From positions 1-64,000 of the IMG/VR virus record IMGVR_UViG_3300036860_000563: a stretch of 64,000 nucleotides of DNA; one strand, written 5' to 3'. Under the pieces are notes generated by a model that saw only the letters and a list, made by a program, of their open reading frames with translations, had not been told where the DNA came from and made no database searches. The position numbers and the translations under genes are program-made. Of this stretch, positions 1-36,039 are shown piece by piece (the first letter of the stretch is position 1; each line of letters opens with the position of its first letter). This stretch comes from a virus (Duplodnaviria > Heunggongvirae > Uroviricota > Caudoviricetes).

Positions 1-1218
1 TGGCGCGAACGAGGTTATTTGGTGAGATCAAGATCGTTCCGTCGTCCAACTGGGTGATGAGCTGCCGCTCGAGCTCGCGGTAGGCGCGCTCCTGCTTCGG
101 AACCAGCTCGACCCAGCGGGTCGCTCGTACGACCCTCGGTAGTTGGTCCAACACCAGCGCCTTGAGTGTGCGCCGGTAGCGCGGGTAGAAGACCCGGTAG
201 AACTCATCGCGTGTGGCTGGGTTGAGTCCGACGACGTCGAGACCACCGAACGCGTTCCACGACATGAGCCCGTACCTGTCGATAAAGCGAGACTTAGTGG
301 GGTACTCATCCGGCTGGGCAAAGTGCATGAGTGACCACAGGTCACCGACGTGGTTGGCGATCGGAGTTCCGGTGAGCAACCAGCGGCGCCGGACGGACGG
401 GTCGTGCCCCACGGCCCAGCAGGCGCGCGTCTGTTGACTCTTAGGTTCCTTGATCTTATGAGCCTCATCGAGTATGACGGTCTTAAACCCGAAGCCGTTG
501 AGCTCCTTCGCGTGCGTCTCACACCGTGACGTGGTGAGGCCTACCTCACCGTTGCGTGGGTCGCACTCACGGCAGCGCCTGAGCCTGATCGACCCGAACG
601 GCGCGAGCCGGGACAGCAGGCGCACCGCCTCGACGTTGATGATGACCAGTGCGGACGGGTCCAGCTTCGCCTGAGCGAGCAGCTTCCGCCGACCGGCCGC
701 ACCACCTCGGATGACGTACGGGGTCACCTCCGGTGACCACTTAGCGGCCTGGCGCTCCCACGCGAGCTTCGTGGAGTTGGGGCAGATCACGAGCGCGGGT
801 AGCGCGTCCACAACCTCGCTCAGCGCCGCGAGTGCTGTGATGGTCTTACCTAGGCCGAGTTCGTCACCGATCAGCGTGTTGCCGCTGACGCCGATGAACG
901 TGGCACCAACGCTCTGAAACGGGTGTAGGTTCGGTGCGAGTAGGGCGTCGTCGGCACAGGTGATCACCGTGCGCAGCTCGGTGGTAGGTTGAACCCGCTG
1001 GGTGAACTCGGCCCACGACCACAGGGTGAGTTGTTCACCGATCGTGACGTTAGCGCCGAACACACCACGCAGTTGTTGACACGCCACCCAGGTGAGCGGA
1101 ACGGTCCACACGCGCTCATCGGAGCTCCAGCGGGCACCCGGGATGAGCTTGATGAGCTCCTTCTCCGTCCACGCCGTCGCGACGGTTATGAGGTCACCGG
1201 CACGTTCAGCGTGAGCCA
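1..1218 (-). CDS. SNF2/Rad54-family DNA helicase, N-terminal part (gene continues beyond left edge)
   Basis: Reverse-strand frame reads VAHAERAGDL...GDELGLGKTITALAAL (Walker A), VILDEAHKIK (DEAH box), LLTGTPIANHVGDLWSLMHF (motif III). GTG start at 1218 is preceded by an in-frame TAA. No stop before position 1, so it is absent from the ORF table. Confidence 0.8.
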
Positions 1219-1970: not shown

Positions 1971-3881
1971 TCACACCAACGTCTCAGTCGTGGAGATGTG
2001 GGAAGTTGACTCGTCGAAGACGTACGGGAGCTTAGCACCCCACGACTCACCGCGTGACACGGACGCGGTGATCGGAACGTTGAGTAGCTGATCGTCGTTC
2101 ATGATCTTACGAAGAGTGTGAGCGACGTCAGCGACGTGCTCACCGGGTACGTCCAGCAGCACCTCGTCGTGCACAGGTGCGAACATCCACTCATCGAGAC
2201 CCGCGCTGGCGAGCTCCACGAGCTTCATCTTAAAGATCTCACCAGCGCCGCACTGGATGATGAAGTTGACGAGCGCGTACTCCTTGCCCTCGTCGGCGAT
2301 GAGCCACCGCTGGGTGAACGGTGAGCGCACCCCACGCACACCACTACCGCGCGCCGCGCTTAGTGCGGTGTTGATCACGTCGCTCTGAAACCGTTGAACA
2401 CCCGGGAACCGCTGGTTCCACACACCGCGAAACGCGCGTGCGTTCTCGAGCGATATTCCGGCGGTCTGTGCGAACTTCGGTACGCCGGCGCCATATAGAG
2501 TAGCGTACGTGGCGTTCTTCGTTACCTGTCGCCGTGGATCGCTCTTAGTGATCGTGTCGTCATCATAGATCAGGCGCGCGAGGTTGACGAAGAAGTCACC
2601 ACCGTCGGTGAACGCCTTGATCATCGTGTGTTCATCCGCGACGTGAGCGAGTAGGCGAGCCTCGATCTGATCGAAGTCACACATCACGAGTGACCCACCC
2701 GCGTGACGAGTTGTGATCATGTTACGCACCACGTCACCGGGACGACTCGTGCCGAACCGTGGCAGGTTCTGCACGTTGGGACTGTCCATCGACATACGTG
2801 ACGTCCGCGCACCGAGTGTGTTGATGGACGGGTGAAGCAGGTCGTCCGCGTCGGCCTCCTCGACGTAGAACCGCAGGTAGGTCGACGCCATCTTCTGCAC
2901 CTGCCGACGCTGCAGCACAGCGCGCGCGAGCGGGTGATCGATCCCGTCGAGAACGTCGGCGTCGAGTGACTTTGCGCCCGACTTCGTCGCCTTGGAGAAC
3001 GTGAACCCGGCGTCTTCGAGGATCTCAATGATCGCAGTACTGGAGCCAGGTTTCACACCGTACTCCCGCCGACACCACTCTTCGACGCGTTCACAGTAGT
3101 CCTCGAACTCACGCAGCTTCTGCGTGGCGAGTGCTCGATCGACGTGCACACCGTAGCGCTCCATGCGCTCGGTGACCCAGAGGACGGCGCGCTCCAGGTC
3201 ATACGCCTTTGGTGCCTCTCGCTGGGTTATCGGGTAGTGGTGCTCGAAGAGCCTATACGTCAGCACCGGGTCCAGGGCGGCGTACGCCCAGTACGGCTGG
3301 TAGTCCAGCGGAACCGTAGCCCACGTCCACTTCGTGCCCGCGAGCTCGGTCTGCAGACCGGCGGCGGCGGCGTCGACGTGTCGCGTCGCCTGGTTCTTCA
3401 GTGCCATCGACATGTGAGGTTCGTTGATCCGTGACAACACCATGGTGTCATGCACCCGGTGACGCGGTAAACACACACCAGCGCGGTCGAGGAACGCCAT
3501 GTCAAAGGTGCTGTTGTGTAAGATCCAGTCACCCTGCCACGAGCGCACGAGCGACTCCATGATGCCACTCCACCGGTCCCACGAGAACGCGAAGCCACGC
3601 GCACCGTCGCCGACCTGCACGAGACGAAGTGTGTCTCGTTGCTTATTCAACCCGGTCGTCTCGGTGTCCAGTCCCAGCGCGTTCACCGGACGACGCTCGC
3701 CCAGCCATGAGTGAAGGGTGATGACGTCCTCGAGTGAGTTGACGAGGTGAAGCTTAACGTCACCGAGTGTCACGAGTTCACAGCTTCTTCCTCTTCCTCT
3801 TCCTCTTCCTCTTCCTCTTCCTCTTCCTCTTCCCACAGTGCCACACTGTGTCCGGTCATAGCACTGTGGAATGAGTGCCAC
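1971..3881 (-). CDS. polA: DNA polymerase I (family A) with 3'-5' exonuclease domain
   Basis: Exo motif LGLDTETTGLN. Polymerase motif B KNATYATLYGAG and motif C APVHDEVLLDVP. N-terminus uncertain: GTG 3881 includes (GR)9 encoded by (CTCTTC)n; alternative GTG at 3773 (VTLGDVKLHL). Neither has a good RBS. Confidence 0.85.
   Translation of the reverse strand: MALIPQCYDRTQCGTVGRGRGRGRGRGRGRGRSCELVTLGDVKLHLVNSLEDVITLHSWLGERRPVNALGLDTETTGLNKQRDTLRLVQVGDGARGFAFSWDRWSGIMESLVRSWQGDWILHNSTFDMAFLDRAGVCLPRHRVHDTMVLSRINEPHMSMALKNQATRHVDAAAAGLQTELAGTKWTWATVPLDYQPYWAYAALDPVLTYRLFEHHYPITQREAPKAYDLERAVLWVTERMERYGVHVDRALATQKLREFEDYCERVEEWCRREYGVKPGSSTAIIEILEDAGFTFSKATKSGAKSLDADVLDGIDHPLARAVLQRRQVQKMASTYLRFYVEEADADDLLHPSINTLGARTSRMSMDSPNVQNLPRFGTSRPGDVVRNMITTRHAGGSLVMCDFDQIEARLLAHVADEHTMIKAFTDGGDFFVNLARLIYDDDTITKSDPRRQVTKNATYATLYGAGVPKFAQTAGISLENARAFRGVWNQRFPGVQRFQSDVINTALSAARGSGVRGVRSPFTQRWLIADEGKEYALVNFIIQCGAGEIFKMKLVELASAGLDEWMFAPVHDEVLLDVPGEHVADVAHTLRKIMNDDQLLNVPITASVSRGESWGAKLPYVFDESTSHISTTETLV
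3785..3833. repeat. (CTCTTC)n hexanucleotide microsatellite, about 8-9 units
   Basis: Seen directly. Translates as (GR)n in the polA frame and as poly-Glu in overlapping ORF 3770..4015. Confidence 0.9.
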
Positions 3882-7108: not shown

Positions 7109-7837
7109 TCACCGCACGAGATCCAGCTCAGTCTGCACAGCGACAAGTCGATCCCACTTTTGCGCCTTCTCGGTGACCACGCCGTCGGCGCCCGCGGTGC
7201 TCTGCACGAGTTGAGCGAGCGTCACGAGCTCGGTCGTTAGCGTCACCAGGGTTGAGACGACGGTCTCGAGTGATGTGGCCACCGCGAGCACGCGCCGGCC
7301 CAGCTCGTGAGCGTTCTCGTCGGCGAGTTCCGGAACGGCGCCGTTGCTCGCGCTCGGTGTCGTCCGAGAAGCGCGTGATTCGTACCGAGTGCGTAGGTTA
7401 GGGAAGCGCTCGGTGTGCTTGCGGTACAGGACCGACACCTGTGAGCCCGTCCACAGGCCGCCACGAAGTGTACGTACACCGCGATCGTTCAGGTCGGAGG
7501 CCGCGAGTTCGTAGCGGTTGTGACGATCGAGGTGTCGGCACACGGCGCGGATCAGGGTGCGAAGTGTCTCGTCGGAGTAGGCCGGTCGTCGCTTGCCGAC
7601 GTAGTGAGCGAACATGTGCGACGTCACCGACTTGACGTTGGGAGCGACGTACTCGTAGTTCGGATGCTCGCACTCGAAGAGCTCGGTTTCGTCGGCGAGC
7701 AGCAGCTTCGTCACGTTCCGGTACGGTACCAGCTTACCGCCGTACTGGGGGTGTGGGTGAGGACCAACGGCTCGCTCACGCGCGATGATCTCGCGGCCGT
7801 CGGGGGTCATCTTCGTCGTCTTCATCACTCGTACCAC
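7109..7837 (-). CDS. hypothetical protein
   Basis: 242-aa ORF with high third-position GC. Helical, Thr/Leu-rich C-terminus. Confidence 0.45.
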   Translation of the reverse strand: MVRVMKTTKMTPDGREIIARERAVGPHPHPQYGGKLVPYRNVTKLLLADETELFECEHPNYEYVAPNVKSVTSHMFAHYVGKRRPAYSDETLRTLIRAVCRHLDRHNRYELAASDLNDRGVRTLRGGLWTGSQVSVLYRKHTERFPNLRTRYESRASRTTPSASNGAVPELADENAHELGRRVLAVATSLETVVSTLVTLTTELVTLAQLVQSTAGADGVVTEKAQKWDRLVAVQTELDLVR

Positions 7838-8109
7838 TCTCTGTGATCACTCTCTCGCCCAGCGGTTGGGTGAGACCTCTCGCCTCGCTACGCTGGATCA
7901 TACCAGGTACCTGCGCTAAAACCGTAGGTTACGTTGTGTGGACGACGACGCCCGGCGACCGCTTGTCAACTCGTCGGGAGTCGCCGCCGTCTCACCTTGT
8001 GGTACCGGTTCTTCACTCTTCCCCTCACAAGAAGCAAAGAACCACTCACTAGGTGTCCTCGCCGGGCTCGCCGCTGCACGACTCAAACAAGCTTAGACAC
8101 CTACGAGCG

Positions 8110-8183
8110 TAGCGGGAACCGGACTCGAACCGGTGACCTCTAGGTTATGAGCCTAGTGAGCTGCCGAGCTGCTCCACCCCGCG
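8110..8183 (-). tRNA. tRNA with CAT anticodon (Met or Ile2-type)
   Basis: Manual fold of the reverse strand: D-stem GAGC/GCTC, anticodon stem CTAGG/CCTAG with loop CTCATAA, variable loop AGGTC, T-arm ACCGG-TTCGAGT-CCGGT. Acceptor pairs 6/7 (position 1-72 is a C-U mismatch). Confidence 0.55.
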
Positions 8184-8191
8184 CTGAGTGC

Positions 8192-8246
8192 GAGTGATCC
8201 GGGTGGGTTGATGACTCTTGGGGAGGTCGCAACACCCGGATCACTC
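8192..8246 (-). terminator. 14-bp perfect stem-loop (GAGTGATCCGGGTG ... CACCCGGATCACTC, 27-nt loop) between ORF 8289..8678 and the tRNA
   Basis: Seen directly. No U-tract. Confidence 0.35.
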
Positions 8247-8288
8247 ACGAGAGTTATCCTACCAGGTCGGGGTGAAGGTAAGTTAGTT

Positions 8289-8678
8289 TCACACCGGCTG
8301 AGGGGATTGGTGGGACCGGTGTGAGTCGATGAACGTGTTGAGCGCGTTGATGAGCTCACCGAGCAGGTGATTTGTGACGTGCTGCTGGGCGACGAGCTCC
8401 GCCACGCCGTACATCACCGTGAGACGACCACCCCAGCGTTCGTTCGCGATCGCGAGCCGCACGTACGCGTCTCTGACGGCCGCGACGTCCGCCGCGACGT
8501 CCACCTCACGCTTCGTCGGTGGTGAAGCACGTCGGACCCGGTACGTGCGCCCGAGCTGGCGCTCCACGCGGTCACGGATCGGCCGTGACAGCCGTAGGAC
8601 GTCACCGCGGTTGGCCTCCGCGAACTTGATCGCCTCGAGCATGCGCTCCAGTGTGGAACCGTTGAGTGATACGCTCAC
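8289..8678 (-). CDS. hypothetical protein
   Basis: 129-aa ORF with high GC3. Confidence 0.4.
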   Translation of the reverse strand: MSVSLNGSTLERMLEAIKFAEANRGDVLRLSRPIRDRVERQLGRTYRVRRASPPTKREVDVAADVAAVRDAYVRLAIANERWGGRLTVMYGVAELVAQQHVTNHLLGELINALNTFIDSHRSHQSPQPV

Positions 8679-8683
8679 GTCGG

Positions 8684-8878
8684 TCAGTCCTCCACGTCGA
8701 GTACGTCGACGTTCACAACGTCGTACGACGTACGATCGTCGGCGAGTGAGTGTGGGTCGTGCACCCAGATCGTTCGACCTAGGAGTAGCTGCTCACCCAG
8801 CTCCTCCGTCACGCGGTGTGGGTTCTGCTCCCAGCCCTCCAGACGATCGAGGGTGATGCGTAGTGTGATCTTCATCAC
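8684..8878 (-). CDS. hypothetical protein
   Basis: 64-aa ORF. Its start overlaps the next gene as ATGA. Confidence 0.3.
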   Translation of the reverse strand: MMKITLRITLDRLEGWEQNPHRVTEELGEQLLLGRTIWVHDPHSLADDRTSYDVVNVDVLDVED

Positions 8879-9168
8879 TAGGTCACATCGCTTATGAAGT
8901 GACCGGGTGACGCGGGTGTAAACCGAATGGCCGCAGTTAGATCAACGCCACGGCGAGGTGCGTCGGTGCACATCTTGGCCCACGTCAGCGGGCCAACGTT
9001 CCGATCGTCGTACATGTTAGGTGTGAACCAGTGACGAGTTGGTTCGCCGAAGAGTACCATCGCAGCTACGTCATCTCGCACCACGACGGTGCTGTAGTTG
9101 TCTTCGGTCTCCGGCCAGTAGAGAACCGTGCCGTCGGGTGGCTCCGGTAGAGTGAGGTCATCGGTCAT
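8878..9168 (-). CDS. hypothetical protein
   Basis: 96-aa ORF. Confidence 0.35.
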   Translation of the reverse strand: MTDDLTLPEPPDGTVLYWPETEDNYSTVVVRDDVAAMVLFGEPTRHWFTPNMYDDRNVGPLTWAKMCTDAPRRGVDLTAAIRFTPASPGHFISDVT

Positions 9169-9781
9169 CGAACGTCTCCTCGGTGTTTACTCGCCGCTGG
9201 TGAAACGCCTCGGCGATCAGTAGCGCGACCGATCGTAGTGTCGTTGTGGTCGCGTGCTCGGCCTCCAACTCCCAGTGTTCTTGACCCGCGCGAAGGGCGT
9301 CGTCAACCGCGGTAGCCGTGATGGCCGCGGCGCGCACCATCTCCCGGGCTTCGACGGCCGCGAGCGCGGTCACGGTCGCTCGCACCAACCGGGACTCGTA
9401 CTCATCACGCACGAGTCGTCGTTCGTCCTCGACGCGCTGAGCGGCGAGTCGCTCCACGGCCGTGACGCGCGCCGCCTCCGTGACACTCTGATCCAGTTCG
9501 TAACCGGTCGCCCACGCGAACAGCGTCGCGAGGTTGACACAGGCGAGTGCCTCGACACGCTGTCGTCCCGTGGCATCAAAGTCGCCGTGCCACAGAGTGA
9601 CATGCTGCTCAACACTAGCGTCCGCCGAGCAGTCAGCCCCGGGCCAGAATCCCGCGTTGTCGAAGATCGTACCCTCGACGGTCACGCACAGCTCCTGCTC
9701 GTCGGGCTCGTGCCAGTTCGGGCGAACACCGAGCTCACGCGCGAGTTCGACCAGCTCAGCACGCCGGGTGATTCGTCTCAC
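9158..9781 (-). CDS. hypothetical protein
   Basis: 207-aa ORF, Ala/Glu-rich and helical. Confidence 0.4.
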   Translation of the reverse strand: MRRITRRAELVELARELGVRPNWHEPDEQELCVTVEGTIFDNAGFWPGADCSADASVEQHVTLWHGDFDATGRQRVEALACVNLATLFAWATGYELDQSVTEAARVTAVERLAAQRVEDERRLVRDEYESRLVRATVTALAAVEAREMVRAAAITATAVDDALRAGQEHWELEAEHATTTTLRSVALLIAEAFHQRRVNTEETFDDR

Positions 9782-9879
9782 TAGGTCGCTCCTATCTCTC
9801 GATCACTCTCTACCTCACGAGCTACATCATATCAAGTTAACGTGATGTCGGCAACAACGACGGCTACGACCACGTAAGA

Positions 9880-10731
9880 TCACTCATAAAAGTGATCCGG
9901 AAGACCAAACATGTCCGGGCTCTCAAGGATCATCGCGCCAATGTCAGTGTCCCGGTTGCTCTCGTTGCGCACGAACGGCTCGATCATCCGGCCACGGGGA
10001 TCGAAGTTGCTGAAGTACATGATGGACTTACGCTCGGGATCGTACTCCTCCGGCGAGCTGACTCGTAGGTTGCGTGCCTGGTGGAACAACGGCGGGATCT
10101 CCTCACCGGTCATCGCCGTCAGGATGCTGCCCGGCATGATGAACACCTCGTCCGAGGCCGGTGTCAACGATGTGATCACGTCGTTGTGAAAGATCTCCAA
10201 ACCCGGCGCGCTGGTCCAGATCACGGTGGCCACCACGCCGTCCTCGTGCCTGGTCTGCAGCAGCTCGCGCTCGGTCGGCGTGTGGAACGAGTTGAACTGA
10301 AGCACCGAGGTCGCCTCAAACGGCAACGCGGCAACACTCTCCACACCCTCGCCGTAGTACTCGCACAACTCGGCGACCAGGCGGGACATCAGCACGACGC
10401 AGACGTCGCGACGGTAGTCCTCCAGCGCGGTCAGCAACGGCCTGATCAGACCAAACTCTGGGATCGAGTAGGCCGACCTCACACCCCAGAAGAGAAAGGA
10501 GTCGTTGAGGTCCACGGCGTTGGGATCACCCGCGTGTGCGGCGCCCAGTGGCCGGTACCCGTTGTTCAACTTTGGCGATTGGTGCAGCGCTTGGCGCTCG
10601 GGATCGCGCTGGCTGAACTCCGTGGTCTGATCGTACAGCTCGGTGAGCAGGCGCGCCTGCCACGCGCCGAGCTGAACCCGGGCGAACCCCGCCACACGGA
10701 ACTGGGTCAACAGCGGCAACGCTACGCACAC
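9880..10731 (-). CDS. 2-oxoglutarate/Fe(II)-dependent oxygenase (isopenicillin-N-synthase-like fold)
   Basis: RHEDGVVATVIWTSAPGLEIF (HxD plus GLQV-like strand), FHQARN (distal His), RKSIMYFSNFD (Arg-x-Ser 2OG binding). Confidence 0.6.
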   Translation of the reverse strand: MCVALPLLTQFRVAGFARVQLGAWQARLLTELYDQTTEFSQRDPERQALHQSPKLNNGYRPLGAAHAGDPNAVDLNDSFLFWGVRSAYSIPEFGLIRPLLTALEDYRRDVCVVLMSRLVAELCEYYGEGVESVAALPFEATSVLQFNSFHTPTERELLQTRHEDGVVATVIWTSAPGLEIFHNDVITSLTPASDEVFIMPGSILTAMTGEEIPPLFHQARNLRVSSPEEYDPERKSIMYFSNFDPRGRMIEPFVRNESNRDTDIGAMILESPDMFGLPDHFYE

Positions 10732-11009
10732 CGTGAAGAACCCGTCGCGGGTGCGAGACGCGCTGTGTCGAGACCGGCGACGAACTCGGCGCTACGCAGA
10801 GTAAACTCAGCGCGAAGAGCGCGCCACTCTCGCCAGGCGAAGATGCCACCGTGATAGCCGTACCACGTGGTGATCGCGGTGCGACGCCGTGCGTCGTCGC
10901 GGAGCGCGCTCAGGTAGCGAGCGTTGACGACGGTGAGCTCGCCCAGCGCGTGGTAGTCGCGCTCACCCAGCGCCCGGTCATACGGTGCGTGGCACGAGTG
11001 TGTGGTCAC
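10722..11009 (-). CDS. hypothetical protein
   Basis: 95-aa ORF overlapping the oxygenase start by 10 nt. Confidence 0.25.
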   Translation of the reverse strand: MTTHSCHAPYDRALGERDYHALGELTVVNARYLSALRDDARRRTAITTWYGYHGGIFAWREWRALRAEFTLRSAEFVAGLDTARLAPATGSSRCA

Positions 11010-11503
11010 CCGACACCCGCCTCCAGCCAGCGATCATACGCGACGGACAACCCGTGATCACGCGCGGCGGCGAGCTCGATCGCCTCCACGGACGCGTCCG
11101 GCAGCACCGGACGTCGCTGCCGCCACTGGGTGAGCAGCTCCATCACCTTGAACGCTGTGTCGGCCCAGGCGACGCGCGCGAAGTCGATCTCATCGGGCAC
11201 GCGAGTGCGCCCGAGTGTGTGTACGAGGTACGTCGCGCGCTCGGACACGACGTCGTCAACCACACGGTAGATCGCCACCTCGAACCAGCGACACGCGCGG
11301 CAGCGCCAACCCGGGGGTGCGGTGTCACCCAGGTGCTGGTGCTCCCGCTGGTGGGATGACGCCTCACCGAGCAGGCTTCCCCGGAACGAGACGTTCTCCC
11401 CACCGCGTCCACGCACGGTGTACACTCGTGTGAGTGCGTCACCCTGTGTGGTGACCCCGGTGGGTGGGCCGACGTTGGCGGAGTCCGCCACCTCATCGAT
11501 CAC
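11006..11503 (-). CDS. hypothetical protein
   Basis: 165-aa ORF. Confidence 0.4.
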   Translation of the reverse strand: MIDEVADSANVGPPTGVTTQGDALTRVYTVRGRGGENVSFRGSLLGEASSHQREHQHLGDTAPPGWRCRACRWFEVAIYRVVDDVVSERATYLVHTLGRTRVPDEIDFARVAWADTAFKVMELLTQWRQRRPVLPDASVEAIELAAARDHGLSVAYDRWLEAGVG

Positions 11504-11555
11504 GGTGTTTTCCTCTCACTCGATCACTACTATCCGTGGGATCAATCTTACCAGG

Positions 11556-11582
11556 AGCGCCCACCAACGGGTGCGTTGGTGG
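11556..11582 (-). terminator. 10-bp perfect hairpin GCCCACCAAC-GGGTGC-GTTGGTGGGC just downstream of the bL12-like gene
   Basis: Seen directly. Confidence 0.4.
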
Positions 11583-11600
11583 GCCGCCTCATGATCTTAT

Positions 11601-12122
11601 CTACGTACGGTGTGAAGATGAGGGTTGAACGATCGCCGTCGCACCCTCGTTCGTGAGAGCACGATGTACACGGTTGGCCTCATCGAGGTCGGTGTGGGTG
11701 AGCACGTCGACGGGCGCGGACTCGACGAACTCCTTCGCATCGCGAATGCCGAGGGCGAGTAGTCGACGAATCGTCCGGATGATGGGCAGCTTGTTGGGGC
11801 CAACGTCGACGAGCCGAACCGTGAACTCGGTGGGCTCATCTTCCACGCTCAACTCGCCGACGGCATCACCAACCGCATCACCAGGTGGTGACACGAGACG
11901 TGCCGGCTCGGCTGTGACGTCGAACGTCTCCGCGAACCGACGATGAAACTCGGTCAGCTCGACGAGAGTGAGGCCCCCGAACGCTTCGAGTAGGTCAGAG
12001 ACACGACTCTCACCACTCTCACCACTCTCACCACTCTCACCACTCTCACCACTCTCACCACTCTCACCACTCTCACCACTCTCACCGCTCTGCTCCACGG
12101 GTCTTTGCCTCCTCACAACCAC
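11601..12122 (-). CDS. ribosomal protein bL12 (L7/L12)-like protein with an inserted (ESG)9 repeat
   Basis: C-terminal domain EFTVRLVDVGPNKLPIIRTIRRLLALGIRDAKEFVESAPVDVLTHTDLDEANRVHRALTNEGATAIV matches the L7/L12 CTD pattern (EFDV.L...G.NK..VIK.VR..TGLGLKEAK.LVE.AP). N-terminal-domain-like SDLLEAFGGLTLVELTEF. The ESG repeat is encoded by (CACCACTCT)9. Confidence 0.65.
   Translation of the reverse strand: MVVRRQRPVEQSGESGESGESGESGESGESGESGESGESRVSDLLEAFGGLTLVELTEFHRRFAETFDVTAEPARLVSPPGDAVGDAVGELSVEDEPTEFTVRLVDVGPNKLPIIRTIRRLLALGIRDAKEFVESAPVDVLTHTDLDEANRVHRALTNEGATAIVQPSSSHRT
12005..12089. repeat. (CACCACTCT)n 9-nt tandem repeat, about 9 units
   Basis: Seen directly. In frame as (ESG)n within the bL12-like gene. 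Confidence 0.9.
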
Positions 12123-13768
12123 GGCCAGTGTGCGTCACGACCGGCCTCTAAGAGTGGGATCAACGTGAACGCCGCGTCGGTGAGGCCACCGAAGGTGTGA
12201 CGGTTGTGACTACCCGCCGGCGCGTGACCGCGCTCGTAGCCCGCGAGGTTCCACGTGTAGAGTGGCGTCGTCGTGGGAACGACGGCGCTCACCTCGACGT
12301 GAGTGGCGTCCGCGGCGGCCTGCTCGTCGGTGATGATGATGACGCGATCGTGACCAGCGTGGTGTTGACGCAGCGCCGCGGCGGTCGCGGTGCCACCACC
12401 GAGGAAGAAGCCGTCACTCGCCCAGCGGGAGAGTGTCGTGAGTAACGACTCACCGTCCCGGAGTGCGAACGTCTTCGTGTGCGCGCCGTGTGCGTCGCCC
12501 CACACTCGGGCGGCCGACGAGAACGACACGAGGTCGGCGCTCTTCGCGCGACCGGCGAGCGCCGCGCCAAAGATCACCGCGACGTCCCAGCGCTTAAGTG
12601 TGCTGTTGTGCGAGAACTGCTCGTCCATCGAGGACGACGTGTCCACCAGGATGAGCGTCCTGCCGGTGAGCCGAGGAACGTTCGCGAGACAGTAGTTGAG
12701 CGCGCGCTCGAGCGGGTACGCCCAGCGGAGGCTGGGTGCCGCGCGGTGCGCCGCGAGAAGCCGGAGGGGAAGCTGCCGTGACCGCGCGACCTCGATCGGG
12801 TCGGCGAGCCTCGCTGCCACGGTCTGTGCGACCGCGTCTCGGACGCCCGCCTCGTCGAGGTTGCGCAGGTTACGTAGTAGTGCCATGTACCCCATCGAGG
12901 GCGCGAGTGCCTCCCACAGTAGGTTCTTCGGTAGCCGGTCGCCGGCTAGCGAGAGCACGTTCTCCCACGTCATACCCGCCGCGGCCAACGTCTCTACGTC
13001 GAGTAGCCCTGAGATACTGCTCTCTGCGACCAGCGAGCGCAGCTCAGCGTTGCGACGAACCGTCGTCAGCAGCTTGGGAACGGCGTTGTCGTGGCCGTGC
13101 CGCCGGTCCAGGGCGTACTTGAACAGCTCACCTTGCCACGGTGCGGTCGGACGTGGGTGAGTCAGCTCGACGACGTCCCCGAACCGAAACGCGTGTGATG
13201 TGGTGTCGTACTTGAGCAGCGCGCGCTCGGTGTAGAGTCGCCGAACGGCGTCGGTGACGCCACGCTTAACCGGCTGGGGTAGGTTCCGACCGTAGGACAC
13301 GACGTAGTACGCCAGCAGCTCACCCGGCTCGTCGGCGCGCCGCAACACCGCGTCGACGAGCGCCCGCGCCAGTCCCCTGTCGTCGGAGAGGCCCGGTACC
13401 TCGTAGGCCGGTACGGACCCGAGGTCAGGACGCTCGCGGCGCGCTCGGATGAACTCGACGGCCCCGACGAGCGGCGCGGAGCGAAGGTCGGCGTCGGCGC
13501 GGAGCCAGCGGAGAAGCTGGAACACCCACACCGGGTCGGTGACCGCGACGGCACGCACCAGCTCACGAAACCGTGTGTCTCGCCGGGACGCTGACTCGTA
13601 GAACGCATCCTCACCCACGAGGTTTGACACGGCGAGCAGGAACAGCTCACTCTTCTCGTCACGGGCGTAGCCGGGTGCGCCCTCGTGTGTGAGACCGCCG
13701 GGTGTAGCCTCGGTGGTGACCGGGCTGGTCGTCGCCGGACGGACGCCGAGAACGTTGAACTTAGTCAT
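12113..13768 (-). CDS. rsr: Ro60/Rsr ortholog (TROVE domain + vWA with MIDAS)
   Basis: Blocks matching human Ro60: ALLRNL (identical to Ro60 LTALLRNLG); RTLILVDTSSSMDEQ ~ RFLLAVDVSASMNQ (DxSxS MIDAS); GGGTA ~ GGTD; RVIIITDEQ ~ VFIVFTDNE; GGLTDAAFTLI ~ CGFDTGALDVI. Confidence 0.7.
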   Translation of the reverse strand: MTKFNVLGVRPATTSPVTTEATPGGLTHEGAPGYARDEKSELFLLAVSNLVGEDAFYESASRRDTRFRELVRAVAVTDPVWVFQLLRWLRADADLRSAPLVGAVEFIRARRERPDLGSVPAYEVPGLSDDRGLARALVDAVLRRADEPGELLAYYVVSYGRNLPQPVKRGVTDAVRRLYTERALLKYDTTSHAFRFGDVVELTHPRPTAPWQGELFKYALDRRHGHDNAVPKLLTTVRRNAELRSLVAESSISGLLDVETLAAAGMTWENVLSLAGDRLPKNLLWEALAPSMGYMALLRNLRNLDEAGVRDAVAQTVAARLADPIEVARSRQLPLRLLAAHRAAPSLRWAYPLERALNYCLANVPRLTGRTLILVDTSSSMDEQFSHNSTLKRWDVAVIFGAALAGRAKSADLVSFSSAARVWGDAHGAHTKTFALRDGESLLTTLSRWASDGFFLGGGTATAAALRQHHAGHDRVIIITDEQAAADATHVEVSAVVPTTTPLYTWNLAGYERGHAPAGSHNRHTFGGLTDAAFTLIPLLEAGRDAHWPWL

Positions 13769-14443
13769 AATAAGCAGCTCTACTTCCTGCCCGCGTAGAA
13801 GTCGTCACACGAAAACGTGCGACCCAGGGTGATCGGCGCACCGAGCGCGTGAGAACCCATACCTACGCTCTCACACCCGCACACTCGCTAGGTCGCACGT
13901 TCTCACATCGTGCTCCCCGAGGACGTGTCGTTCACGGCTTGTCACAAACCGGAGAAGTAACCGTGAACTTCGCACCGAGGAGATAAGACGAGGACAGTGA
14001 TGATCAACGTTGACCGTCATCGTCCCACTTCAGCTGATGCTCGTATCTCGTTGAGTTGACCGAGTTCAGGGTGACCAACGGTGTGATTTCAGCCAATTTG
14101 AAGTAACCGTCGGTCGGCGCACCGGTCAACCTATGACAACACTAACAGGATCTTGTCGAGCGTGCAAACTCGTACCCACCGAGTGGCCGTCTAACGACAC
14201 TTGATGATCACTTGGTGATCGTCCGGTGGTGTCACTGGGTGACACCCGCACGCCGGAGTGGTTGTAGATTCAAGGCAGTAGACGACGGTGGGCGCCCAGC
14301 CGCCAAGCCTAGGCGCCCACTCACACAACTAGATAAACAGGAGTAGCTGTGTTGGATCCTATCATCACCTACAGACGGGAGTTGCCACAGGTGCTTAAGC
14401 TAATAGTACCACAACCGCGCTACGTCCACGGTTGTGAGCTGCC
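13769..14443. promoter_or_regulatory. 670-bp divergent intergenic region between rsr and primase: several palindromes/hairpins, candidate location of a Y-RNA-like ncRNA
   Basis: No ORF with coding signature. Palindrome GGTGTCAC-TGG-GTGACACC at about 14227..14245. GC hairpin GGTGGGCGCC...GGCGCCCAC at about 14288..14320. Long-range 8-bp pairing GTTGACCG (14063) / CGGTCAAC (14133). Confidence 0.4.
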
Positions 14444-14468
14444 GTGACGACGGAGAAGATCACGGCAG
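14409..14468 (+). promoter_or_regulatory. two adjacent inverted repeats (CACAACCG/CGGTTGTG and GCTGCCGTGA/TCACGGCAGC) bracketing the primase GTG start
   Basis: Seen directly. The second 10-bp stem contains the start codon (14444). Confidence 0.4.
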
Positions 14469-17068
14469 CGCGTGGTTACACCGAGCGTGGTTGGTACGTG
14501 TTCGTACTCGGAACTGGTAAGACACCACTGCCGAACTGCGAGAACTGCCGGCCGGAGATCACCGGGCCTTACCACGATCGCACCAACTGCGCGTGTCTCA
14601 CGTGTCACGCGTTCTACGCGGCGACGCGTGACGTTGACCGACTCACCGAGATGATCGAGCATCACCCGCTCGGCATGCTCGCGGTCCGAACGGGTAACGT
14701 GAGTCGATTGCTCGTCGTGGACGCGGAGGCTACGAAGAGTGAACCAAACGGACCCACCGGTCTGGAGGTTCTCGACGCTTGGGAGTCGTGGACCAACGGT
14801 GTTACGCTGCCAGCGACGCTTCAGCAGCGCACCGGCGGCGGTGGGCTTCACGCGCTCTACCGACTACCGGTAAGTGCGCCCATCATACGCAGTCGGCGCG
14901 TCTTGCCCAGCGTTGACGTCAAGGCCGAGCACGGCTACGTGGCGGTGGGACCGGGCGGTGACGGCCGTCACTGGGTGGATGAGGTTACGCCGGTCGCCGA
15001 CGCACCGTCGGAGCTCATCGCGTGGCTCAGCACCCAGCGGAACGTAGTGTTGCGAGCCCACGGTGGTGAAGACACCACTCCGATCGACTACTCATTTGCC
15101 GTTGCCCGAACGCTGGACGTCATACCGGACGGCTGGCGTGAGGTGTTCACGCGTGACTTATCGTTCGTGCTTCGAAAGTCCGGTGTCTCACGTGAGCGCG
15201 CGACCGAGGTGCTGCGTGAGCGCTGGACGACGTTCGCCCAGCCACCCAACGCGCAGCACTACGTACCGTGGGAGCACGTCGAGTACAAGATCGAGCGTGA
15301 TTGGACCAACTTGTTGCCAGACACACCTAGCGGCGGCATGACCTGGGCGCAGAACATCATTGATGAGGCAGCACGACGACTTACAGCGAGCTCGGCATTG
15401 GTCCCTATAAACAGCTTAGTGAACGACGAAGAGATCGATGAAGAGATCGCGGGCAGTGGTGAGAGTGATGAGCCACCGGCGCTCACAACACCTCCGTTGG
15501 CCGTCGGAGAGCTGGACCCGGACCGGTGGTATGGCACCCATGACGACGGCACGGCCGCTCGGTTGGTGGCCGTCTGGGGTGACTGGTTCCGGGCCATCCC
15601 ACGACAACGTGGCGGCTACACCTGGCTGTACTACGACGGTGTCACCTGGCACCAGGACACACGCGAGCAGATCTGGCAGGCGGTCGCCGAGGTCGTTAGA
15701 CGACTGCCGGACGAGCTGCACGCCTGGGAAGCTCGGTGTGCCGCACTAACCGTGGAGGGCGTGCAAGACTGGCGAACGGCGGTGATCGGAGGCAACGGAC
15801 AGAACGCCGGTGAGTTTCAGGTCGTCGTCGCTCTTAGGAAGTACGGTGCGGCCTGCCGCGAAAACGCGCGAAAAGAGACGGGGGCCCGAGCGTTCGCGCG
15901 CCTGCGCGCGGTGGCAGAGGCGGACCTGGACGCTAACACACGGTACCTGGGGTTACCGGATGGTCGAGCGCTCGACGTGAGAGCTGTTCACGTAGGCTCA
16001 GACCGCTCCACGTGGTTGGTGCCGGCACGACCAGAGATGCTGCTGACCAAGCAACTCGGGTGTGCGTACGTCCCGGTAGACCAGACGTACCCGGGCACCT
16101 GCTACGAGTTCTCCAACTTCCGCCGGTACCTGGAGGGCGTGTTGCCGGACGCGAAGGTTCGAAGCACGCTGCAGGAGTTCGTCGGCTACGCGCTACTCGG
16201 TGAACCAAACGAGAAGATCGTAGTGCTGCTCCACGGCCCCCCGGACTCCGGCAAGACGGTGTTACTGGAGGTCCTAGAGGCACTCTTTGGCGACTACGGT
16301 GGCTGGACGGACGCGCAGGCCCTGGTCGCGGGTAAGGCTAAGTCTGCGCATCAAGAGTGGTTGAACAACATCCGTGGACTGCGACTGGTTTGCACCCCAG
16401 AGACCGCGCGTGGTGCGAAGATCGACGCCGCGTGGATGAAGTCGTACTCTGGTCGAGAGCCACAGACCACGCGAGGCGCGTACGGTGACACATCGGTCAC
16501 GTGGAAGCCGACCGGGATAATCTTCAACGCGTCGAACCACTACGTCGAATATGACGCGGATGACACCGCGGTGGCGGAACGAACCCAAGTTATCGAGTTT
16601 GAGCGGCAGTTTCTACGCGGTAATGATGAGCGTGATGATCAGTTGCCACAAAAGATCCAGGACGGTGAGCTACCCATCGTACTCAACTGGGCGCTGGACG
16701 GACTGCGCCGGCACGGCGAGCGCGGTGGCCTACTCATCGCCGATCGGATAGTCGAGTGGTCGAACCGTTACCGGATCGCGCAGGATACGACGGGACAGTT
16801 CATCGCGGACGCGAGAGAAGAGGGTTTCCTCGTCGAGGATGAGACCGGTGCCGTGTCGTCAGCGTTCGTAACGGTTAAGGTCGTCTACGAGCTGTACCTG
16901 TCGTGGTGCCGTGTGCAGTCGGTCCGGCACCCGCTCGGTCGCAACAGGTTCAACGCACACCTACGAACGGTCTACGGCTGGCGGGACGTTCGAAGTGGTG
17001 TGACACGCTGGCACGGCTGGACGTCACCGGTAACGAGCGCCGCCTCGGTTGTACTACTCCAGTGGTGA
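14444..17068 (+). CDS. bifunctional primase-polymerase (Prim-Pol) / D5-like SF3 helicase
   Basis: N-terminal prim-pol-like region with zinc motif CENC...CACLTC and LHALYRLP. Walker A VVLLHGPPDSGKT. Long C-terminal D5/helicase-like region. Confidence 0.8.
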   Translation: MTTEKITAARGYTERGWYVFVLGTGKTPLPNCENCRPEITGPYHDRTNCACLTCHAFYAATRDVDRLTEMIEHHPLGMLAVRTGNVSRLLVVDAEATKSEPNGPTGLEVLDAWESWTNGVTLPATLQQRTGGGGLHALYRLPVSAPIIRSRRVLPSVDVKAEHGYVAVGPGGDGRHWVDEVTPVADAPSELIAWLSTQRNVVLRAHGGEDTTPIDYSFAVARTLDVIPDGWREVFTRDLSFVLRKSGVSRERATEVLRERWTTFAQPPNAQHYVPWEHVEYKIERDWTNLLPDTPSGGMTWAQNIIDEAARRLTASSALVPINSLVNDEEIDEEIAGSGESDEPPALTTPPLAVGELDPDRWYGTHDDGTAARLVAVWGDWFRAIPRQRGGYTWLYYDGVTWHQDTREQIWQAVAEVVRRLPDELHAWEARCAALTVEGVQDWRTAVIGGNGQNAGEFQVVVALRKYGAACRENARKETGARAFARLRAVAEADLDANTRYLGLPDGRALDVRAVHVGSDRSTWLVPARPEMLLTKQLGCAYVPVDQTYPGTCYEFSNFRRYLEGVLPDAKVRSTLQEFVGYALLGEPNEKIVVLLHGPPDSGKTVLLEVLEALFGDYGGWTDAQALVAGKAKSAHQEWLNNIRGLRLVCTPETARGAKIDAAWMKSYSGREPQTTRGAYGDTSVTWKPTGIIFNASNHYVEYDADDTAVAERTQVIEFERQFLRGNDERDDQLPQKIQDGELPIVLNWALDGLRRHGERGGLLIADRIVEWSNRYRIAQDTTGQFIADAREEGFLVEDETGAVSSAFVTVKVVYELYLSWCRVQSVRHPLGRNRFNAHLRTVYGWRDVRSGVTRWHGWTSPVTSAASVVLLQW

Positions 17069-24732: not shown

Positions 24733-25860
24733 ATGGTGATGACGACACTCGCTGACGTTCTCGATCCGCACGCGCTTCGGCGCGCGCTGACGAGTGGACA
24801 CGTCCGCGCCCAAGCTCACCCCGAGCTACCCTACACGATCTTGAACTACACCGAGCGAGCGGCGTATGACGTCGCCTGGAATGACGTCACGTTGTCGTGT
24901 CGTGGTCTGATCTACGATCACAGCACGGACGTGGTGCTCGCGCGACCGTTTCGGAAGTTCTTCAACTACGGACAGCTCTTCAGCCACGGACAGTCTAGCG
25001 GACCGATCCTCGACCTCGACTCCGCGGCGGTGGTCACGGACAAGGCGGACGGTAGCCTGGGCATCTTATACCCAACACCGGACGACTGGGCGATCGCGAC
25101 CCGTGGTTCGTTCACGAGCGACCAGGCGGTGCACGCCACCGAGGTCCTGCGGTCACGGTACGCCACGTTCGAACCGCCGCCCGGGCTGACCGTCCTGGTG
25201 GAGATCGTGTACCCGGGCAACCGGATCGTGCTGAACTACGGCGACCTGGACGACCTGATCCTGCTCGGCGCGGTGGACATCGCCACAGGTCGCTCATTCG
25301 ATCCTGGCGTCTTGATGGGTTGGCCCGGACCGGTAACCGAGGTCTTCTCCTACGCCACCCTGGCACAAGCGCTGGTGGCTCCGCCACGACCGAACGCGGA
25401 GGGGCTCGTGGTGCACCTATCCCACAGTGATAACCGGGTGAAGTTTAAGCAGGAGGACTACGTCGCGCTACACCGCATCGTCACCGGGCTCAACGCTCGC
25501 ACGGTGTGGCGGCACGTCGTCAGTGGTGAGCCGCTCGGTGAACTAATCACTCCGCTGCCCGACGAGTTTCACCCGTGGGTGCGCGCTGTCACCGCCGAGC
25601 TCACCGCTCGCGTCGAGCGACAGCGCGCCGAGCTGGTGCGGGCGTACGACGACGTGCTGTGGGAGCTGTCGCAGCTGACGAAGACGGCAGAGGACTGGAC
25701 GCGTAAGGACTTCGCGCTCCACGTAGCGTCCCACCCTCACCGCTGGGCGATGTTTATGCTACTAGATCGGCGTGACATCTGCCCAACACTGTGGCAGCGC
25801 GCTCAACCCGAGGCGTCGTGGACGCCGTCCGGACGCACCTACTCGGAGGACACAGCGTGA
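24733..25860 (+). CDS. ATP-dependent RNA ligase
   Basis: Nucleotidyltransferase motif I VVTDKADGSLGIL (KxDG), motif IV EGLVVH, motif V RVKFKQ. GAGAAGG RBS. Confidence 0.65.
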   Translation: MVMTTLADVLDPHALRRALTSGHVRAQAHPELPYTILNYTERAAYDVAWNDVTLSCRGLIYDHSTDVVLARPFRKFFNYGQLFSHGQSSGPILDLDSAAVVTDKADGSLGILYPTPDDWAIATRGSFTSDQAVHATEVLRSRYATFEPPPGLTVLVEIVYPGNRIVLNYGDLDDLILLGAVDIATGRSFDPGVLMGWPGPVTEVFSYATLAQALVAPPRPNAEGLVVHLSHSDNRVKFKQEDYVALHRIVTGLNARTVWRHVVSGEPLGELITPLPDEFHPWVRAVTAELTARVERQRAELVRAYDDVLWELSQLTKTAEDWTRKDFALHVASHPHRWAMFMLLDRRDICPTLWQRAQPEASWTPSGRTYSEDTA

Positions 25861-25918
25861 ACATGTTCTTCTTCATCGGCTTTGTGGTGGGACTACCGGT
25901 CTTCTACGTGATCGCTCG

Positions 25919-27055
25919 ATGGATCATGAGACGATGATGGACCTGTCGGGTGCGAGTCTTCAGGTGCTGCTCACCGTACACACGAACCTGCGCAACGGCC
26001 TGAGTCGCGTCGCTGAGACGCTGGACGACGGCACGTTTCACGTCGTTGGAGCGCACGGTGAGGCGTCACCGGCCCAGTTTGGTCAGCTCATTCTCATCCT
26101 ACTCAGAGAGATCAACGCCGAGCTCTATCGGAGAACGGAAGCCCTCATGCCGACGCTGACGATCACCCGCGGCCTGCCCGCCTGCGGCAAGACGACCTGG
26201 GCTCGGGCCTGGGTGGCGCGTGACCCGACCCACCGGGCCAGGGTGAACCGGGACGACCTGCGCGCCATGGTCCACGACGGGGTGTGGCTCGGGCAGGACA
26301 CCGAGAAGCAGATCGTCGCCGGCCGCGACGCCACGATCCGGGCACTGCTACGGCGCGGGGTCGACGTGGTGTGCGACGACACCAACCTGCCGCAGCGAAC
26401 CGCCCGGGACCTGCGCCGCCTCGCCGTTGTGGCCGGTGCCGAGTTCCTGGTGGTTGACTTGAGCGACGTGCCGGTCGGCGAGTGCGTGCGCCGCGACGCC
26501 GTCCGTGACCGGCCGGTCGGCGAGTCGGTGATCCGGGACATGTGGAACCGGCACGTGCGTGGCCGGCCGCGTCCGCTGCCGCTCGCCGACGAGCCGCAGG
26601 ACGGGGGCGACCAGCCGGTGCCCTACGTTCCGCCGCCGGGCGCACCCAGCGCGGTGCTCGTCGACGTCGACGGCACAGTGGCGCTGATGGCCGCCCGGTC
26701 GCCGTACGACGAGACGCGCGTGCGCGAGGATCGTCCCAACCTGCCGGTGATCGCTGTGGTGAACGCACTCTACGACGCCGGCCACGCCGTGGTGTTCTGC
26801 TCGGGCCGCACCGAGGGCTGCCGCGTCGAGACCGAACGCTGGCTCTGTGAGCACGTGATGGCGCCGGTCACCGCTCTTCACATGCGCGCCGTTGGCGACA
26901 CTCGCAGAGACGCGATCGTGAAGCTGGAGCTGTTCGACCGCCACATCCGCGACGCGTACCGCGTGGTGTGCGTCCTCGACGACCGCGACCAGGTCGTAGA
27001 GATGTGGCGTGCGCTGGGCCTGACGGCGCTGCAGGTGGCACCCGGCGACTTCTAG
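25919..27055 (+). CDS. polynucleotide kinase-phosphatase (P-loop kinase + DxDxT phosphatase)
   Basis: TRGLPACGKTTWA (P-loop); VLVDVDGTVA (DxDGT); VCVLDDRDQVV (HAD motif IV). The catalytic core probably starts at ATG 26147. 25919..26146 is in the same frame with no stop, so the N-terminal limit is uncertain. Confidence 0.7.
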   Translation: MDHETMMDLSGASLQVLLTVHTNLRNGLSRVAETLDDGTFHVVGAHGEASPAQFGQLILILLREINAELYRRTEALMPTLTITRGLPACGKTTWARAWVARDPTHRARVNRDDLRAMVHDGVWLGQDTEKQIVAGRDATIRALLRRGVDVVCDDTNLPQRTARDLRRLAVVAGAEFLVVDLSDVPVGECVRRDAVRDRPVGESVIRDMWNRHVRGRPRPLPLADEPQDGGDQPVPYVPPPGAPSAVLVDVDGTVALMAARSPYDETRVREDRPNLPVIAVVNALYDAGHAVVFCSGRTEGCRVETERWLCEHVMAPVTALHMRAVGDTRRDAIVKLELFDRHIRDAYRVVCVLDDRDQVVEMWRALGLTALQVAPGDF

Positions 27056-27062
27056 GAGACGT

Positions 27063-27434
<372 letters not shown>

Positions 27435-35737: not shown

Positions 35738-35807
35738 GGGATGATAGCTTAACGGGAAAAGCCCGGGTCGCTCCCGGCGTACGCTGGTTCGAGGCCAGCT
35801 CATCCCA
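35738..35807 (+). tRNA. tRNA-like element with perfect acceptor, D- and T-arms but a non-canonical anticodon arm (CGC at the anticodon position)
   Basis: Manual fold: acceptor GGGATGA/TCATCCC + A73; D-stem GCTT/AAGC; T-arm GCTGG-TTCGAGG-CCAGC; variable loop CGTAC. Anticodon arm is either CCGGG-TCGCT-CCCGG (5-nt loop) or a 4-bp stem with loop GTCGCTC. Confidence 0.45.
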
Positions 35808-35951
35808 CGAGAGACACTCGTCCTAGGAGTGAGCGTCACTCGAGGATGTGAGTGGCGGAGGAAGTGGAGCCGGTTGGACCGTCCGGCGCGCGACACACCG
35901 GTACGATCGCTTGGTCAGCGAGGGACTACCGGTACCCGATCTCACATCCGA

Positions 35952-36023
35952 ACCTACGTAGCTCAACGGACAGAGCACCGGTCTACGAAGCCGGTGGTGG
36001 AGGTTCGACTCCTCTCGTAGGTA
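35952..36023 (+). tRNA. tRNA-Arg (anticodon ACG)
   Basis: Manual fold: acceptor ACCTACG/CGTAGGT; D-stem GCTC/GAGC; anticodon stem CCGGT/GCCGG with loop CTACGAA; T-arm GGAGG-TTCGACT-CCTCT; discriminator A. Confidence 0.7.
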
Positions 36024-36039
36024 CGAAGATCTTGATAGG

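Follow-up and report, generated by a model that had tools for sequence, protein, structure and literature searches.

Why would a phage carry its own copy of a ribosomal stalk protein, and what could such a copy do in the infected cell? The question is raised by an open reading frame (ORF) in a stretch of phage DNA of 64,000 nucleotides (nt), positions 1 to 64,000 of IMG/VR record IMGVR_UViG_3300036860_000563, which we refer to as the window. The ORF encodes a homologue of ribosomal protein bL12 (L7/L12, the product of rplL) and directly follows rsr, the gene for a Ro60-like protein.

Our analysis identified the protein as a full-length, divergent bL12 homologue with the canonical architecture of N-terminal helices, disordered hinge and alpha/beta C-terminal domain (CTD). 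Direct support covers homology, the order of the domains, the predicted fold, the arrangement of the genes and conservation within a lineage. With modest confidence, we favour the reading that the gene is a phage-encoded paralogue from an actinobacterial-type rplL, and that its product exchanges into the host ribosomal stalk via uL10 and recruits translation GTPases.

Domains and predicted fold of the bL12-like protein

In its longest form, from GTG 12122 in the ORF list, the reading frame occupies 11601..12122 on the minus strand and encodes 173 amino acids (aa). A Pfam search assigned residues 100-163 to the L12 C-terminal domain (PF00542) at 53.2 bits (gathering cutoff 25.9; expectation value, E, 3.7e-14) and residues 43-77 to the L12 N-terminal dimerisation domain (PF16320) at 22.1 bits, slightly below the 25-bit cutoff. 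The NCBIfam model for L12, TIGR00855, aligned residues 42-165 with model positions 7-124 of 125 at 68.6 bits; its equivalog cutoff, which stands for the same function as housekeeping rplL, is 84.4 bits. Among solved structures, the top sequence match found by phmmer was M. tuberculosis bL12 (chain 8yeq_A, E 1.3e-15), and it extended across both domains. The N-terminal domain (NTD) was aligned without gaps to those of M. tuberculosis (8yeq) and T. maritima in the phmmer alignment, and its motif TLVELTEF..FxETFDVTA is of the actinobacterial type.

An AlphaFold2 (AF2) model was built from a 62-sequence alignment, and its segments are listed in Table 1 together with their predicted local distance difference test (pLDDT) values. 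When the model was compared with the PDB by Foldseek, the CTD superimposed on E. coli L7/L12 (1ctf) with a template modelling (TM) score of 0.97, a root-mean-square deviation of 0.7 Å and 37% identity, and on M. tuberculosis L7/L12 (8yeq) with a TM score of 0.91. Over the CTD, the bL12 structures that were matched had E values from 7e-9 (1rqu) to 3e-3, TM scores to the target of 0.83-0.97 and identities of 28-38%. An initial annotation, made from the DNA letters and their translation, had described a phage-borne bL12 homologue with a CTD of the factor-recruiting type and had quoted the CTD motif GPNKLPIIRTIRRLLALGIRDAKEFVESAP. The motif is present, the domain aligned well in the formal PF00542 search, and the description as a whole is upheld by Pfam, TIGR00855, phmmer, AF2 and Foldseek.

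The L7/L12 CTD has the same fold as the adaptor ClpS, and ClpS structures were indeed among the Foldseek matches, with TM scores to the target of 0.5-0.7. However, these matches had E values of 0.02 or above and 11-16% identity, compared with values down to 7e-9 and identities up to 38% for bL12. In addition, the Pfam and TIGRFAM matches were to L12 alone, and a bL12-type NTD is present. The Pfam, TIGR00855, phmmer and Foldseek evidence effectively refutes a ClpS-like adaptor in place of a ribosomal protein homologue, and we consider the probability of this identity negligible.

The hinge is similar in length to actinobacterial hinges. Its composition is rich in Pro, Asp and Val instead of Ala as in cellular bL12. 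Within the hinge, two diverged 12-nt units (11865-11888) give rise to a small GDAV-GDAV tandem duplication that is absent from the other members of the clade described below. The initial annotation had attributed an altered hinge to an (ESG)9 insert. This was incorrect, as the repeat forms an N-terminal tail; the hinge differs instead by its Pro/Asp content and the GDAV-GDAV duplication.

Relatives, constraint and the microsatellite tail

A megablast search of 50,697 phage records returned no close DNA relatives among cultured phages, and the exact protein, in either its 173-aa or its 165-aa form (see below), was absent from a collection of 15 billion proteins. A word-indexed search of 5.8 billion proteins yielded one relative at E<=1e-3, designated P0001. 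Pattern scans of IMG/VR returned the P0001 contig alone, and a scan of GTDB genomes returned nothing. When 1.84 billion cluster representatives were scanned exhaustively with HMMER, 3,826 proteins matched, the highest scores belonging to proteins with 3-7 tandem CTDs. P0001 was the best single-domain match (58% identity), and P0029 (48%), P0056 (45%) and P0085 (45%) were the other single-stretch matches that later grouped with it; identities to these four range from 41 to 58%, varying with the alignment. Proteins of ordinary bL12 length (~126-140 aa) were 34-45% identical, and the named matches, at about 35-45%, were bL12 proteins of Corynebacterium, Pseudonocardia, Chloroflexi and Dehalococcoidia.

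In a neighbour-joining tree of 95 sequences, the window protein grouped with P0001, P0029, P0056 and P0085 in a clade with a bootstrap value of 0.80. The members of this orphan clade share the NTD motif TL.ELTEF.RRF, a Pro/acidic hinge and the motifs (E)PTxFTV(R)L and ALTxEGAT. When metagenomes were scanned with the five-member clade alignment, generic cellular bL12 dominated the results and zero clade members were added.

P0001 is encoded on a 60-kb IMG/VR viral contig (UViG_3300045931_000347) that also carries integrase, ERF and amidase genes. A tblastx comparison of stretches of the P0001 contigs (about 20 kb and 11 kb) with the window revealed no other gene in common. In the contexts of P0001, P0029 and P0085, no neighbour was annotated as uL10/rplJ, and rsr did not adjoin the bL12-like gene. 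The neighbours of P0085 and P0029 were small ORFs without Pfam matches, and PHROG scans of the neighbours of the orphan homologues were uninformative.

P0001 has a C-terminal extension of ~95 aa that is rich in Arg, Ala and Glu (residues ~128-220; L001:10382-10663) and that the window protein does not have. Many database proteins, represented by the metagenomic P0002-P0009, P0154 and P0155, consist of 3-7 tandem bL12 CTDs without an NTD; four tandem CTD-like segments were counted in P0154, and three, behind a signal-peptide-like N-terminus, in P0155.

An alignment of 60 public genomic and metagenomic bL12 homologues, with 55 columns conserved at >=80%, served as the reference for conservation. 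The window protein is identical to the consensus at 31 of these 55 columns and P0001 at 42. In the helix alpha4/alpha5 region, eight invariant positions are changed, all of them conservatively (I>L, V>I, K>R, V>I, L>I, K>R, E>D and L>F), and several conserved Lys/Glu positions past the ESAP motif are lost, as they are in P0001. Core CTD residues are kept (G, K, I, R, LG, K, VESAP and GA). At the E. coli residues that we take to be the factor-binding ones (K65, V66, I69, K70, R73, L80 and E82), the window protein is identical at K65, I69 and R73 and conservatively substituted at the others (V66L, K70R, L80I and E82D). The ratio of nonsynonymous to synonymous substitution rates (dN/dS, Nei-Gojobori) between the window gene and the P0001 gene was 0.37, at a dS of 1.08 that is near saturation. 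The GC content at third codon positions (GC3), calculated without the repeat, was 0.69, compared with 0.73-0.81 in other phage genes.

In-frame start codons 5' of the NTD are limited to codons 1, 3 and 9; the next one, codon 77, falls within the hinge. A Shine-Dalgarno sequence (AGGAGG) precedes codon 9 (GTG 12098) by 9 nt, and codons 1 and 3 have none. Since AGGAGG stands at this distance before codon 9, we prefer the shorter, 165-aa product, which likely begins M-EQ-(SGE)9. The P0001 start MSDQLIERF aligns with VSDLLEAF directly past the repeat in the window protein. A start codon 3' of the repeat was considered as well and rejected, as the residue aligned with the P0001 start region is encoded by GTC and no in-frame ATG, GTG or TTG follows until codon 77. 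Any product containing the NTD must therefore carry the SGE tail.

Tandem Repeats Finder (TRF) detected 10.0 copies of a 9-nt unit (97% matches, score 166). On the coding strand, the repeat reads AGCGGTGAG followed by eight identical AGTGGTGAG units and encodes (SGE)9 plus S, in agreement with the 9-nt microsatellite that had been noted initially. Putative N-terminal dimerisation and uL10-binding helices are predicted, in line with the initial annotation, which had placed such a helix before the repeat; the order is the reverse, the repeat occupying residues 12-39 and the helices residues 43-77 by Pfam, so that the repeat amounts to an N-terminal extension of ~30 residues. As the unit is 9 nt long, gain or loss of copies leaves the reading frame intact. 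In SRR11742948 and SRR11742962, two Logan assemblies of the same phage, the flanks were identical and contigs ended or began about 30 nt into the repeat. The Logan contigs L007 and L008 independently confirmed both repeat junctions but not the copy number. Neither IMG/VR nor the JGI metagenomes nor the GTDB genomes contained an exact 25-mer over the repeat junction, and the SGE repeat was found in none of the four closest relatives (P0001, P0029, P0056 and P0085). PHROGs comparison of the bL12-like protein gave only low-complexity, collagen-like matches to the repeat, which are meaningless.

The near-perfect identity of its units indicates that the SGE tract arose by recent expansion through replication slippage. 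The hypervariability proposed for it initially was not supported, although plausible. Further in-ORF microsatellites are present in the genome, namely (GAT)22.7, (TCTTCC)8 and SDQ repeats. In view of this genome-wide tendency, the tract needs no special adaptive story. The tail is probably not the functional core but tolerated or at most mildly modulatory.

The slippage repeats also bear on whether the gene matters to the phage at all. A captured host gene drifting without an adaptive role, with the SGE repeat as a mark of relaxed constraint, would account for the score under the equivalog cutoff and for the many departures from conserved columns, and the other in-ORF repeats would make the SGE tract unremarkable. 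Against such a passenger, the ORF is uninterrupted and preceded by a good Shine-Dalgarno sequence, the substitutions at invariant sites are all conservative, dN/dS is 0.37 in comparison with a gene in an unrelated phage backbone (P0001), and all five members of the orphan clade keep NTD, hinge and CTD. A fresh capture is contradicted by the GC3 value, which is close to that of the other phage genes. Overall, the gene seems to be maintained and to have ameliorated to its phage genome; it looks neither freshly captured nor decaying, and we regard a passenger gene as quite unlikely.

Each 9-nt SGE unit contains GGUGA on the mRNA strand, which is complementary to UCACC of the 16S rRNA 3' tail, and there are therefore nine Shine-Dalgarno-like pentamers 3' of the start codon. 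An effect of the repeat on initiation or pausing is conceivable.

The other microsatellites were located as follows. The plus-strand ORF 27063-27434 (123 aa, no Pfam match) has an acidic C-terminal tail, in which (GAT)22.7 at 27351-27418 gives rise to 24 consecutive Asp before ERE and the stop codon; this is the second microsatellite-encoded acidic tail in the phage. A perfect (TCTTCC)8 at 3786-3833 encodes (GR)8 in the frame of the minus-strand ORF 1971-3881, in the N-terminal part of the longest possible ORF for a PolA-family DNA polymerase, the true start of which may differ. A 9-nt repeat of 4.7 copies at 45302-45343 encodes SDQ repeats in the 1832-aa ORF 44544-50042, probably the tape measure protein.

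Possible action on the host ribosome

To our knowledge, bL12 is the only multi-copy and freely exchangeable protein of the ribosome and the entry point for every translation GTPase. For these reasons, a phage copy of bL12 with a uL10-docking domain is among the simplest conceivable viral edits of existing host ribosomes. Dimers of the bL12 NTD reportedly dock on helix alpha-8 of uL10, the hinge is said to let the CTD deliver IF2, EF-Tu, EF-G and RF3, and bL12 is said to exchange on mature ribosomes. We infer that the phage protein binds uL10, enters ribosomes and benefits the phage along the same lines. Its two-helix NTD would dimerise, with itself or with host bL12, and then dock on helix alpha-8 of host uL10; the flexible hinge would give the CTD its reach, and the CTD would recruit the same four factors. 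During infection, phage copies could thereby supplement or replace those of the host in the stalk. Such docking would need no new ribosome assembly, because bL12 exchanges readily on mature ribosomes. The gene follows rsr in a phage genome, not rplJ, which makes it a viral paralogue and not the housekeeping gene.

Compared with cellular bL12, particularly the actinobacterial proteins (8yeq and the Corynebacterium and Pseudonocardia proteins P0169 and P0175), the phage protein has the same three-part architecture and 39-41% full-length identity. It differs in being encoded outside an rplJ-rplL operon, in its 30-residue (SGE)9 tail and Pro/Asp-rich hinge, in the eight conservative exchanges at invariant CTD positions, in the loss of Lys/Glu past ESAP and in its score below the TIGR00855 cutoff. 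Its closest relatives, P0001, P0029, P0056 and P0085, share the NTD motif, the hinge type and the two further motifs with it but lack the SGE repeat and, in the three contexts available, an adjoining rsr.

Viral copies of bL12 are not without precedent. bL12 is among the two ribosomal proteins most commonly encoded by viruses, a bL12-domain protein of a Salmonella phage has been detected in purified 70S ribosomes, and it has been argued that viruses favour ribosomal proteins that are easily exchanged (Mizuno et al., 2019, Nat Commun, PMC6375957). The window gene resembles these virus-encoded examples (Mizuno et al., 2019) in carrying the PF00542 domain in a phage genome < 80 kb; its putative factor-contact residues are in part retained and in part conservatively exchanged. 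Its clade likewise occurs in genomic contexts that vary, which implies that the gene was acquired repeatedly or is mobile. The cultivated examples were from phages of Proteobacteria and were mostly either CTDs contained in a larger protein or short proteins, 98-107 aa in length, whereas the present protein is encoded by an actinophage and has an NTD and hinge, a microsatellite tail and a Ro60-like partner gene. A cultured actinophage with a bL12 CTD-like domain is known as well: Curtobacterium phage Commonplace gp92, annotated as 'ribosomal protein L7/L12, C terminus domain', is a very weak match (E 0.2, 32% identity over 64 residues) that has the CTD only, behind an unrelated N-terminal part. 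Lacking an NTD, gp92 is incapable of canonical docking on uL10.

Phage bL12 is already published, and the present gene is an unusual further example of it that introduces no new principle. Less usual are the retention of NTD and hinge, the membership in an orphan clade, the microsatellite tail and the pairing with Ro60. The gene extends the known cases to actinophages, directs attention to a small orphan clade that is conserved and in which hinge and CTD surface are distinctive, and is linked to Ro60 and RNA-repair genes within one genome. It is a good candidate for testing whether viral ribosomal proteins join host ribosomes, and with what effect.

Several observations weigh against stalk exchange. 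The scores of the NTD and of the TIGR00855 match both fall below their cutoffs, identity at the conserved columns is restricted to 31 of 55, and conserved Lys/Glu positions past ESAP are lost. The bL12 N-terminus and its acetylation affect stalk stability, and a 30-residue acidic N-terminal tail could interfere with uL10 docking. Finally, a tagged phage bL12 was unusable for affinity purification of ribosomes, suggesting weak association (Mizuno et al., 2019, PMC6375957).

A rival reading is that of a decoy or anti-defence protein. Either in soluble form, away from the ribosome, or built into the stalk as a variant subunit, the phage protein would titrate or exclude factors that land on the CTD, such as CARF-RelE toxins of the Cami1 type, ribosome-inactivating proteins or stress GTPases, and would so shield phage translation from abortive infection. 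bL12 is reportedly the docking site of Cami1, a CRISPR-associated ribosome-dependent RNase, and PDB entry 8phj, 'cA4-bound Cami1 in complex with 70S ribosome', was among the structural matches. Inhibition of E. coli ribosomes by a plant ribosome-inactivating protein has been reported to depend on the L12 stalk (PMC12737465). The consistent K>R, E>D and aliphatic exchanges on the factor-binding helices of the CTD, together with the loss of Lys/Glu past ESAP in both the window protein and P0001, have the look of a retuned surface. The phage also has other counter-defence genes for RNA repair, Rnl1 and PNKP (Table 1), and CTD-only bL12 proteins that are unable to join the stalk occur in other phages, Commonplace gp92 among them. 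However, the NTD and hinge are intact across the orphan clade, which is more easily explained by docking on uL10. The affinities of individual CTDs for factors are weak, so that high expression would be needed for titration. We consider such an anti-defence role unlikely.

The rsr neighbour and genome context

The initial annotation had placed the bL12-like gene directly beside rsr, and this arrangement was confirmed. The rsr product matched Pfam TROVE (E 3.2e-17) and phrog_850 (E 3.4e-44); a match to VWA_2 (E 5e-4, 21.1 bits) was below the 27-bit cutoff. Proteins annotated as 'Ro-like RNA binding protein' in Streptomyces phage LuckySocke and Gordonia phage VanLee share 47% identity with the rsr product. 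The ribosome-binding site of the bL12-like gene overlaps the rsr stop codon, which suggests a two-gene operon, and the bL12-like gene is probably translationally coupled to the Ro60-like gene. The putative operon ends in a strong GC-rich hairpin, located 16-42 nt past the bL12-like stop codon. The minus strand of the surrounding region (11540-11604) folds with -29.9 kcal/mol (z -4.43), and 0 of 200 shuffled sequences were as stable. A consensus terminator scan, which needs a T run, did not list the hairpin, because it lacks a U tract. It is likely an operon terminator or an RNA-stability element.

The pair heads a leftward gene block, which also contains the DNA polymerase gene, and is divergent from a Prim-Pol primase gene at 14444 on the plus strand. 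Between rsr and Prim-Pol lies a gene-free gap of 675 nt (13769-14443), the minus strand of which folds with -286 kcal/mol (z -4.86 vs 20 shuffles). The gap had no Rfam match and contained no tRNA, and no Rfam Y RNA or YrlA was matched at E<=1 within 7800-14500. Divergent promoters or a Y-like RNA partner of Ro60 could be located there, or both.

These features raise the possibility that the bL12-like protein is a functional partner of Ro60, perhaps together with a Y-like RNA, in quality control or remodelling of ribosomes or rRNA, for example by tethering Ro or exonucleases to the stalk region or by marking ribosomes. Bacterial Rsr acts on rRNA together with exonucleases. The tight operon-like arrangement, with the Shine-Dalgarno sequence overlapping the rsr stop, and the strongly folded gap 5' of rsr, a possible Y-like RNA, are consistent with a partnership of this kind. 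Yet, in a comparison with the contexts of P0001, P0029 and P0085 and with VanLee and LuckySocke, the rsr-bL12 pairing was found in this phage only: the three orphan homologues are not beside rsr, and the Ro-like genes of the two cultured phages lie near tRNA genes, with bL12 absent. The failure of the Rfam search to find Y RNA or YrlA points in the same direction, and we judge a Ro60 partnership distinctly improbable.

The window belongs to a phage, as its terminase shares ~36% identity with the terminases of Streptomyces and Arthrobacter phages and further phage genes are present (Prim-Pol, PolA and large ORFs where tail genes are expected). The phage is an actinophage. It encodes three tRNAs, a T4-type RNA ligase (Rnl1) and a polynucleotide kinase-phosphatase (PNKP), and on this account it invests in translation maintenance. 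From their sequences, Rnl1 and PNKP are predicted to form a tRNA/RNA repair pair, of a type that usually counters anticodon nucleases.

Table 1. Features of the bL12-like gene, its product and the surrounding phage genome. Positions are those of the window unless residues are given; tRNA coordinates are assigned in the order in which the tRNAs were listed (Met, Ala, Arg).
Feature	Position	Strand	Evidence
bL12-like coding sequence, preferred start GTG 12098	11601..12098	-	165 aa + stop; ORF list, Shine-Dalgarno, Pfam and TIGRFAM matches
AGGAGG ribosome-binding site	12108..12113	-	Read from sequence; first base is last base of rsr TGA stop (12113-12115)
9-nt microsatellite encoding (SGE)9-S, disordered acidic N-terminal tail	12002..12091	-	TRF; unit listing; AF2
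N-terminal domain, two helices, putative dimerisation and uL10-binding module	11907..11999	-	PF16320 22.1 bits, phmmer, AF2
Flexible hinge	11829..11906	-	AF2 pLDDT 34-45; alignments
C-terminal domain, translation-GTPase-binding surface by homology	11625..11828	-	PF00542, AF2, Foldseek
AF2 model: no secondary structure, low confidence	residues 1-26		pLDDT about 50
AF2 model: two helices	residues 27-41 and 45-59		pLDDT 84-88
AF2 model: hinge without secondary structure	residues 60-91		pLDDT 34-45; residues 64-87 < 50
AF2 model: beta-alpha-alpha-beta-alpha-beta domain	residues 92-159		pLDDT 90-94
GC-rich hairpin, no U tract	11559..11585	-	
rsr, Ro60-like TROVE+VWA protein, upstream gene of the pair	12113..13768	-	Pfam, PHROGs
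tRNA Met-CAT	8109-8183	-	ARAGORN; Rfam at gathering score
tRNA Ala-CGC	35738-35808	+	ARAGORN; Rfam gathering score not reached
tRNA Arg-ACG	35952-36024	+	ARAGORN; Rfam at gathering score
RNA ligase, T4-type Rnl1	24733-25860	+	PF09511 E 3.2e-9
Polynucleotide kinase-phosphatase PNKP	25772-27055	+	HAD_PNKP E 3e-54 plus P-loop kinase domain

A more ambitious proposal would join these elements. A small phage-specific lineage of full-length bL12 proteins, with Pro/acidic hinge and retuned CTD surface, would replace host stalk subunits and render ribosomes resistant to stalk-dependent defences or selectively efficient for the phage; it would be co-expressed with Ro60 in a toolkit of tRNAs, Rnl1 and PNKP, and variation in (SGE)n length would tune docking on uL10. 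We regard this combination as speculative and improbable as a whole.

Two further ORFs of the minus strand were noted near the bL12-like gene. The ORF at 11006-11503, directly past the hairpin, encodes a 165-aa protein with a CxxC motif and no family match. The ORF at 9880-10731, in the same gene block, has a weak match to 2OG-Fe(II) oxygenases (20.8 bits, below the cutoff).

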